A model generated the notes under the pieces. The model had not been told where the DNA came from and did not search any database. It worked only from the letters and a program-made list of their open reading frames with translations. DNA of 64,000 nt from IMG/VR virus record IMGVR_UViG_3300045242_000006, positions 1 through 64,000 of that record. One strand, written 5' to 3'. Origin of the DNA: a virus. Below, piece after piece: positions 47,700 through 48,083 of this stretch. The position numbers and the translations under genes are program-made. The first letter of the stretch is position 1. Each line of letters begins with the position of its first letter.

Positions 47700-48012
47700 T
47701 GATCTGCTCATGACGCTGAGTTTCGTATTGGAAGATAGAATTACCCTAAGAAACGCCATACAGAAAAATCTGCCTAAGACGTAACTAAGGTTCTATCTTC
47801 CACACATCTCATGACGCTTGAGATCGTGATTGGCCTGCATGGGCAGGAGTCGATTGCTCGACAGATTCTGATCATTCCACCTTTCGGCGTCACCGCTACG
47901 CTTTAACCAGATTAGAACTCAGCTTGCCCAGTAGCACTCTCTTCATAGGCGTCCATCCCGAGGGACTTCCTGATGGCCGGTGAGTGGTGCTTTCGCAGAC
48001 ATATCTCTCCAT
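47700..48012 (-). ncRNA. structured element copy B (homologous to 13775-14070)
   Basis: Same scaffold as copy A with compensatory stems; downstream of a TTGACT-17nt-TAGTAT promoter. Confidence 0.7.
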
Positions 48013-48022
48013 CAGTTTTTCC

Positions 48023-48083
48023 ATACTATCATGACAAATCTACCAAGTCAACCCCTTGACAAAAGCGGATTGTATGGTACTAT
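48023..48083. promoter_or_regulatory. back-to-back divergent sigma70-like promoters
   Basis: AGTCAA-CCCC-TTGACA at 48046-48061; -10 boxes TAGTAT (leftward) and TACTAT (rightward). Confidence 0.7.

Follow-up and report, generated by a model that had tools for sequence, protein, structure and literature searches.

Two copies of a structured RNA head the two leftward gene blocks of a Pseudomonas phage, and from their sequences we place them as paralogues in an uncatalogued family of ~300-nt pseudoknotted phage RNAs. The window, by which we mean the whole 64,000-nt stretch of viral DNA that was analysed, comes from a virulent Pseudomonas myovirus of the phiPsa374/KIL/VCM kind, Otagovirus-like, with a genome of 97,286 bp. 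The ~300-nt element is a genuine structured RNA with strong covariation backing; it is read from the minus strand, and both copies lie directly downstream of a promoter, lack a terminator and carry a 3' hairpin between twin direct repeats. Among the readings weighed below we tentatively favour a cis-acting co-transcriptional leader, which would influence either the elongation complex or what becomes of the transcript; a trans-acting RNA and a transcription-primed origin rank next, above a sensor leader and a template for repeated copying.

Compared over 13778-14079 and 47698-48023, copies A and B are 74% identical, with blocks of identity alternating with variable stretches, and the indels by which they differ (1, 3, 10, 11 and 12 nt) rule out a coding reading of the element. 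A covariance model built from ten homologues has exactly two matches in the whole 97,286-bp genome, and these are the two copies. Their extents and the principal paired parts of their 5' domains are given here, the 5' end of copy B being a predicted one placed ~7 nt after the -10 hexamer.

13778..14072, minus strand: copy A, structured leader RNA (model match 292.5 bits; alignment to copy B; fold z = -2.0)
47698..48016, minus strand: copy B, structured leader RNA (model match 288.6 bits; covariation; single-sequence fold z = -3.3)
14066-14072 with 14025-14031, minus strand: P1 helix of copy A
48009-48015 with 47970-47976, minus strand: P1 helix of copy B
13998-14002 with 13962-13966, minus strand: pseudoknot of copy A
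47931..47935 (GCUAC, P2 loop) with 47895-47899 (GUAGC, inside P3), minus strand: pseudoknot of copy B

With ten homologues, RNAalifold gave 53 pairs, 26 of which were compensatory. When 18 sequences were used, the fold comprised 58 pairs in ten helices including the pseudoknot, and 95.8% of cells were paired, compared with 76% in shuffles and 37-44% in slid controls; 38 of the 58 pairs were compensatory with both sides changed, and none of 500 shuffles reached any of the five measures. The pseudoknot (helix 4) was found by an all-against-all column scan, and four of its five pairs covary. Several conserved G-U pairs identify the folded strand as the minus strand of the window, which is the strand transcribed from the leftward promoters. 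The length of the element is 295-320 nt. Searching the whole window against Rfam 15 at the gathering score returned tRNAs only, and at E values up to 10 the best matches of both loci (E = 0.1-0.4) were far below gathering and belonged to eukaryotic or archaeal families. Our working definition of the family is a P1 helix enclosing GAGAGAYAUGU ... CUCACCG together with a hairpin further downstream that lies between two copies of a direct repeat particular to the element, and it fits both window copies, all 29 aligned members and five 'partial' members.

The initial annotation had placed both copies behind back-to-back promoters with palindromic -35 pairs, and these pairs are exactly as described (TGTCAA-CCC-TTGACA at 14102-14116 and AGTCAA-CCCC-TTGACA at 48046-48061), with each -35 hexamer having a fitting -10 at 16-17 nt on both arms.

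14079..14107, minus strand: leftward promoter of copy A (TTGACA, 17 nt, AACAAT, TG extension)
14102..14116: perfect 15-bp palindrome TGTCAACCCTTGACA of copy A, holding both -35 hexamers
14111-14138, plus strand: rightward promoter of copy A
48023..48051, minus strand: leftward promoter of copy B (TTGACT, 17 nt, TAGTAT, TG extension), at a fixed distance from P1 in relatives
48046..48061: palindromic -35 pair AGTCAA-CCCC-TTGACA of copy B
48056..48083, plus strand: rightward twin promoter of copy B (TTGACA, 16 nt, TACTAT), driving the rightward genes from 48115 onward

The leftward -10 hexamers end at 48023 (copy B) and 14079 (copy A), and a start ~7 nt past this point coincides with the first bases of helix P1. 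In all Pseudomonas-phage members P1 begins at ~+1, the -35/-10 lying at a fixed distance from it, and a twin -35 layout of the form GTCAA-N3-6-TTGAC recurs before the element; the frequency of GTCAA-N3/4-TTGACA is far above chance. The palindrome of locus L172, GTCAACCCTTGACA, is identical to the TGTCAACCCTTGACA-type -35 pair of the window. Such a -35 palindrome might serve as an operator through which a dimeric regulator silences the two promoters together.

By gene direction the whole genome is divided into four blocks.

From 13.7 kb to the window start and beyond, continuing at 97-75 kb of the record, leftward: block left of copy A
14.2-16.5 kb, rightward: short block right of copy A
47.6-17 kb, leftward: block left of copy B
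From 48.1 kb, rightward: block right of copy B (first ORF at 48115)

Divergent transcription occurs at just two points, ~14.1 kb and ~48.0 kb, as had been claimed for the window, and this holds for the whole genome as well. The gene content assigned to the leftward blocks was also borne out: the block left of copy A encodes primase/helicase and DNA polymerase, and copy B lies ahead of tRNA, virion and lysis genes (19 tRNAs, large terminase, major head protein, tail fibres and endolysin). The length of >13 kb given for the replication genes behind copy A did not stand, block A measuring ~36 kb in all. T-arm-like words (…GGAATCGAACC and …TCGATTCGAAC) are found at 46402-46435 and 45268-45295 on the minus strand, outside every ARAGORN tRNA call.

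On the other side of copy A, the short rightward unit encodes an HNH endonuclease and an RNA ligase. Homing-endonuclease genes are immediate neighbours of copy A both here, where the HNH gene (14161-14805, plus strand) adjoins it on the rightward side, and in KIL1 (L008, about 5990-6280), where a gene with a GIY-YIG-like N terminus starts directly behind the RNA. The RNA ligase gene (PF09414 plus PHA02142 OB domain; 15253-16497 of the window, plus strand) is divergent from the A-type twin promoter in Otagovirus-like, Flaumdravirus and Pakpunavirus genomes, with counterparts at 27551-28687 in PAK_P4 and at 7720-8862 in KIL4 locus L151, and a functional tie between the ligase gene and the structured RNA is possible.

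The copies had been described as heading two long leftward operons. Their position at the block starts is upheld, whereas the blocks are not single operons and contain many internal consensus promoters. On the minus strand of the whole genome there are 28 strong TTGAC[AT]-N16-18-TAnnnT sites, with ten in 1-13.8 kb and fourteen in 71.8-97 kb; those between copy B and the virion genes are at 47389, 42422 and 42387, the latter two just before the terminase gene. The site nearest to copy B and the first gene behind each copy are as follows.

47362..47389, minus strand: consensus promoter behind copy B (TTGACA, 16 nt, TATACT, TG), ~300 nt downstream of the element
47414..47611, minus strand: first gene behind copy B, 65-aa CxxC...CxxC protein (phrog_10364)
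13309..13710, minus strand: first gene behind copy A, 133-aa protein (phrog_3754), conserved behind A-type copies

The promoter at 47362..47389 sits upstream of a small-terminase-like gene and the tRNAs, and its equivalent is annotated as 'promoter_12' in the PAK_P4 record. That record, annotated from RNA-seq, also marks divergent promoters immediately ahead of the element, and one more follows the small gene; its small RNAs are annotated elsewhere, with none at the element. The 25-kb virion/lysis block (17000-42300) contains no TTGAC[AT]-N16-18-TAnnnT promoter, compared with about one per 1.5 kb in the replication block. For the late genes this leaves a different type of promoter or read-through from 42422/42387. 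Given the many consensus promoters downstream, the element RNA would be missing from the majority of polymerases that enter the blocks, and an antiterminator at the head of a block cannot account for the passage of most polymerases through it. With the RNA made from the head promoter only, and with ten promoters in the window part of block A and three past copy B, the element is not required for most of the transcription of the blocks. Internal terminators had likewise been ascribed to the blocks; a few are convincing (9699, 1962, 36379 and 42714), but the sites are not enriched, numbering 18 compared with 13.4 and 14.8 in shuffles. No terminator-like site follows copy A or copy B, in agreement with the earlier statement that neither 3' end has a U-tailed terminator.

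The phrog_10364 gene is kept behind the B-type copy in Pakpunavirus and in two other phage contigs; PHROGs, Pfam and the ESM Atlas gave no function for the first gene behind either copy. The promoter scan found no promoter-like site between copy B and the first ORF, so that the 65-aa gene is probably transcribed through the element. Within this interval (47634-47657, minus strand) a 3-codon mini-ORF, AUG AAU AAA UAA, comes after a strong ribosome-binding site, UAAGGAG, and the same site with 1-2-codon ORFs is seen in L002 and L009. Also between copy B, from its 3' repeat R2 (see below), and the first gene, at about 47640-47700 on the minus strand, ~50 nt of the RNA are C/A-rich and nearly G-free. 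This G-poor stretch might serve as a Rho-loading or Hfq-type site; Pakpunavirus B-type copies share it, and behind copy A there is none. For the Pakpunavirus locus, one RNA-seq run and three others were available as contigs only, which carry no information on transcript ends, strand or level; one contig spans the element and both flanks.

The two-copy layout is also found in Pakpunavirus (G001, PaP1 and PAK_P4), in the ~95-kb phages G004 and G005, and in KIL1 and phiPsa374, and the genera with two copies in the same positions are Pakpunavirus, Otagovirus and Flaumdravirus. In relatives with two copies both face in the same direction, one before packaging genes and the other before replication genes; those of PAK_P4 correspond to 89164-89462 and 29047-29336 in KC862300. 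Across 123 Pakpunavirus records the B-type copy is preserved with 99% identity or more, and no RNA is annotated at it in the Pakpunavirus records listed. PAK_P3, from the sister genus Nankokuvirus and with the same genome plan, has no match to the RNA model. The element is not a genome terminus, as the PaP1 copies (19956-20254 and 51767-52066) are far from the mapped 1190-bp terminal repeat.

More distant members were recruited by scanning viral contigs for GAGAGAYATGT followed, after a gap, by CUCACCG, and come from phages of 41-57% G+C with genomes of other sizes; a looser scan for CTCACCG..CTAYGAAGA gave chance matches for the most part. In these members the RNA lies at a module start, though not always at a point of divergence: it is directly upstream of a DEAH helicase gene in L159, L163 and L178, this gene starting ~25 nt past the RNA end in L159, and upstream of terminase genes in L161. 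In L195 a hairpin with a T-run, read by eye, lies just upstream of the RNA. A co-oriented gene follows within 25-400 nt 3' of the RNA in about 16 of the 17 contexts examined. The earlier suggestion of a leader thus agrees with what is seen, namely an RNA that starts at ~+1 of a sigma70-type promoter, has no terminator and has a co-oriented gene next. In the contexts examined the homologues do not lie independently of operon heads, the arrangement that the initial annotation had named as evidence against a put-like antiterminator, and that idea survives as a conjecture. Only the P1 domain or P1-P3 is recognisable in L178, L158, L166/L185 and L172/L187, where the middle part is different, and these elements still end with a hairpin between twin repeats. 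As judged by sequence comparison the family is modular, with the P1 domain and the repeat cassette as its constant parts.

The repeat cassette occupies the 3' part of each copy.

13887..13896, minus strand: repeat R1 of copy A (AUUUAGGAUA)
13813..13880, minus strand: 3' hairpin H of copy A
13788..13797, minus strand: repeat R2 of copy A (AUUUAGGAUA)
47808..47818, minus strand: repeat R1 of copy B (AGCGUCAUGAG), 5' of H
47730..47801, minus strand: 3' hairpin H of copy B (helices 8-10), whose internal loop ACGUCUUAGGC / GUAUGGCG is conserved
47707..47717, minus strand: repeat R2 of copy B (AGCGUCAUGAG), 3' of H

In every member examined H stands between two copies of a direct repeat, 7-16 nt long, and members matched only in the 5' domain have repeats of up to 16 nt that are 68-88 nt apart. 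At least 18 distinct twin-repeat sequences occur in the family, differing by lineage and identical inside each element; that of Pakpunavirus, AUCUGCAUG, differs from the repeats of copy A and copy B. The longest word common to both flanks has a mean length of 9.1 nt within an element compared with 4.9 nt between elements. Where R1 and R2 do differ in the core, the four differences are transitions with G in R1 and A in R2; one transversion lies at the edge, and two peripheral differences run the opposite way. Because the linkers before the repeats keep fixed, side-specific differences, we read the identity of the repeats as selected rather than produced by gene conversion. In a Pakpunavirus A-type copy (L139:1501-1800) the 5' repeat AUCUGCAU is present in tandem duplicate, 8 nt apart, and in L002:8274-8602 R1 is directly followed by an insertion of 21 nt. 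Insertions are thus tolerated around R1, with the repeat itself kept.

No pairing partner for the repeats was found in the RNA, its flanks or five phage genomes. A partner in cis was rejected, as the best duplexes fall at different places in each homologue, and the covariation scan of all column pairs, which found the pseudoknot, found no partner for R. No near-exact complement is present in the phage's own genome, and G-U-tolerant complements in five phage genomes occur at about shuffle expectation. Folding of R into a small hairpin ("kissing loop") was discarded, the CUCA-loop-UGAG arrangement being present in the B-type class only and not in A-type repeats; so was the pairing of CUGAG in copy B with CUCAG of T2 seen in a single-sequence fold, which is not conserved in A-type copies.

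Two known mechanisms need identity of two segments over complementarity, namely the re-pairing of a strand at the twin copy and the pairing of an RNA segment with the template of its twin. To our knowledge, no other structured RNA family has repeats that are identical within elements and change freely between them. It is conceivable, albeit unlikely, that the twin repeats form a programmed strand-transfer device, in which H would juxtapose them so that a strand on one re-pairs at the other; either nascent R1 would capture the template DNA at R2 and the R-loop would prime replication, or a polymerase would jump. If so, the element would be a new RNA-built origin or template heading phage gene modules, beyond a simple leader.

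The former route corresponds to a transcription-primed origin, for which we see a small chance. R1, held at the exit channel by H, would pair with the template at R2, and the 3' end of the persistent RNA-DNA hybrid would prime leftward DNA synthesis, by analogy with ColE1 RNA II. That RNA is a folded transcript of a few hundred nt from a constitutive promoter, whose upstream segment engages the template near the origin. As R1 and R2 are the same, R1 RNA has its complement in the template strand at R2, which a primer of the ColE1 RNA II type requires, and this is one of two readings that explain repeats identical yet free to change. The four in-core differences would be tolerable by rG-dT pairing, the strong constitutive-type promoters point along co-oriented blocks such that forks would run with transcription, and the A-type copies lie at the replication module. 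However, the composition skew tracks gene direction only, no AT-rich unwinding stretch was seen on reading the flanks, the L159 RNA ends ~25 nt before a start codon, PAK_P3 has no model match, and the mismatch count is tiny, with the two peripheral differences in the opposite direction. ColE1 RNA II also belongs to a plasmid system, whereas the phage element has no recognised RNase H site or unwinding element and its B-type copies stand before packaging genes.

The polymerase-jump route, in which a polymerase copies H and jumps from R1 to R2 to give tandem ~70-110-nt units, would resemble DRT2 and is very improbable here. In DRT2, a bacterial defence system, an adjacent reverse transcriptase produces a concatemer with a stop-free frame, and identical ACA motifs beside the basal stem document the first of the two identity mechanisms (bioRxiv 10.1101/2024.05.08.593200). 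The likeness lies in the geometry, with a pseudoknotted scaffold of similar size and identical short motifs flanking a stem-bordered region, and repeats of 7-16 nt are universal in the family. Against this, the phage is without a reverse transcriptase (no PF00078 match in the 97-kb genome), the H units are 68-109 nt long and not multiples of 3, and 13 of 20 have no stop-free frame when concatenated, so that a DRT2-type template with a conserved open frame was rejected; no joints were seen in the contig-level runs, which is weak evidence.

In a possible though doubtful alternative, processing of the leader, perhaps within the single-stranded tails that follow P4 and H, would release a stable, abundant, trans-acting RNA aimed at a protein of the host or of the phage (for takeover, as a decoy or in anti-defence), and the downstream gene would simply share the promoter. 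RNAs with a specific binding partner typically have such a complex, conserved, pseudoknotted tertiary fold. In addition, P1 encloses the 5' end, H could protect a processed 3' end, and the element is almost invariant (at least 99% identity) in the 123 Pakpunavirus records. The variation of the downstream gene (Zn-ribbon, phrog_3754, helicase) suggests that the RNA is not tied to one product, and small RNAs derived from 5'UTRs and 3'UTRs are reported in other Pseudomonas phages (bioRxiv 10.1101/2023.10.13.562163). These points are countered by the fact that neither a terminator nor any other feature defines a 3' end, by the PAK_P4 annotation, whose authors marked RNA-seq small RNAs and none at the element, and by the different twin repeats in the two copies of one phage, which would need explaining for a single trans target.

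The unrelated downstream genes across the family weigh against a sensor leader, riboswitch-like or sensing a protein or tRNA, that would set the translation or stability of the first gene on a cellular signal. The 5'UTR position and large conserved fold would suit such a leader, and in L187 and L185 R2 lies directly before the ribosome-binding site. However, we saw no expression platform, that is, no terminator and no consistent sequestering of the ribosome-binding site, and there is no Rfam riboswitch match; we consider a sensor quite improbable.

We tentatively favour the cis-acting leader because position and fold fit a 5' leader best. Host RNA polymerase would make each RNA from the leftward arm of the back-to-back sigma70-type promoter pair, as the 5' leader of the first transcription unit of its module (replication for copy A, packaging and virion genes for copy B). 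The 5' domain (P1, P2, the pseudoknot and P3) may bind the transcribing polymerase or a travelling factor and thereby alter elongation, termination or processing of its own transcript, and the R1-hairpin-R2 cassette would couple this action to the downstream message. Against the cis leader stand, besides the many downstream promoters, the lack of a model match in PAK_P3 despite its identical layout, the number of terminator-like sites in the blocks, which is no higher than in shuffles, a 300-nt pseudoknotted fold that exceeds the needs of known cis antiterminator RNAs, and the twin repeats, which have no role in a cis leader or antiterminator.

Pakpunaviruses (PaP1, PAK_P1, JG004, K5/K8, PaoP5 and ~120 other sequenced isolates) infect Pseudomonas aeruginosa, with several in use for phage therapy, and Otagoviruses are candidates for the biocontrol of kiwifruit canker. 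Both groups carry two copies of the RNA, at both points of outward genome transcription, and it goes unannotated in every record examined. If it controls elongation, processing or replication at the module heads, the RNA would be a principal regulator across an entire lineage of phages, with a fold new to RNA biology.

RNA signals that head long transcription units and alter the elongation complex include lambda nutL/nutR and EAR of the Bacillales, nut being a short boxA/boxB signal that needs N protein and Nus factors. The element shares their place at unit heads, differing in that it has no Rfam match, and no NusG/LoaP-like gene was found in the phage. The small RNAs reported in other Pseudomonas phages by Putzeys et al. 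include those of PAK_P3, for example one at 31147-31308 upstream of the primase/helicase gene, which end at a terminator (bioRxiv 10.1101/2023.10.13.562163). Like the element they are noncoding, come from phage gene leaders and are conserved within a genus; unlike it, they have no described covarying fold or twin repeats. The element is not a known PAK_P3 small RNA, as sRNA1, sRNA2 and the RNA upstream of gp49 are unrelated to it in sequence.

The initial annotation had likened the element to put of HK022, a comparison that finds no direct support and that several results weaken. The put RNA is ~70 nt long, with two stem-loops in a V shape and a triplex in stem I, and suppresses intrinsic and Rho-dependent terminators in cis over at least 10 kb, with no phage proteins and through the β' zinc-binding domain (PMC9378689). 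Position and copy number do parallel putL and putR; size and architecture do not. With its 295-320 nt and ten helices including a pseudoknot, the element is not a member of the put family, being about four times larger, with twin direct repeats and no architectural likeness. Both copies point leftward, whereas putL and putR serve two directions; many downstream promoters bypass the element; and the hosts and the kinds of phage differ, HK022 being a lambdoid siphovirus and those described here ~95-kb virulent myoviruses. Only position and copy number, then, would carry the analogy: two diverged paralogous RNAs per genome, at host-polymerase promoters where the major directions of transcription start and, as in putL, just downstream of the promoter, with no dedicated phage protein obviously needed.
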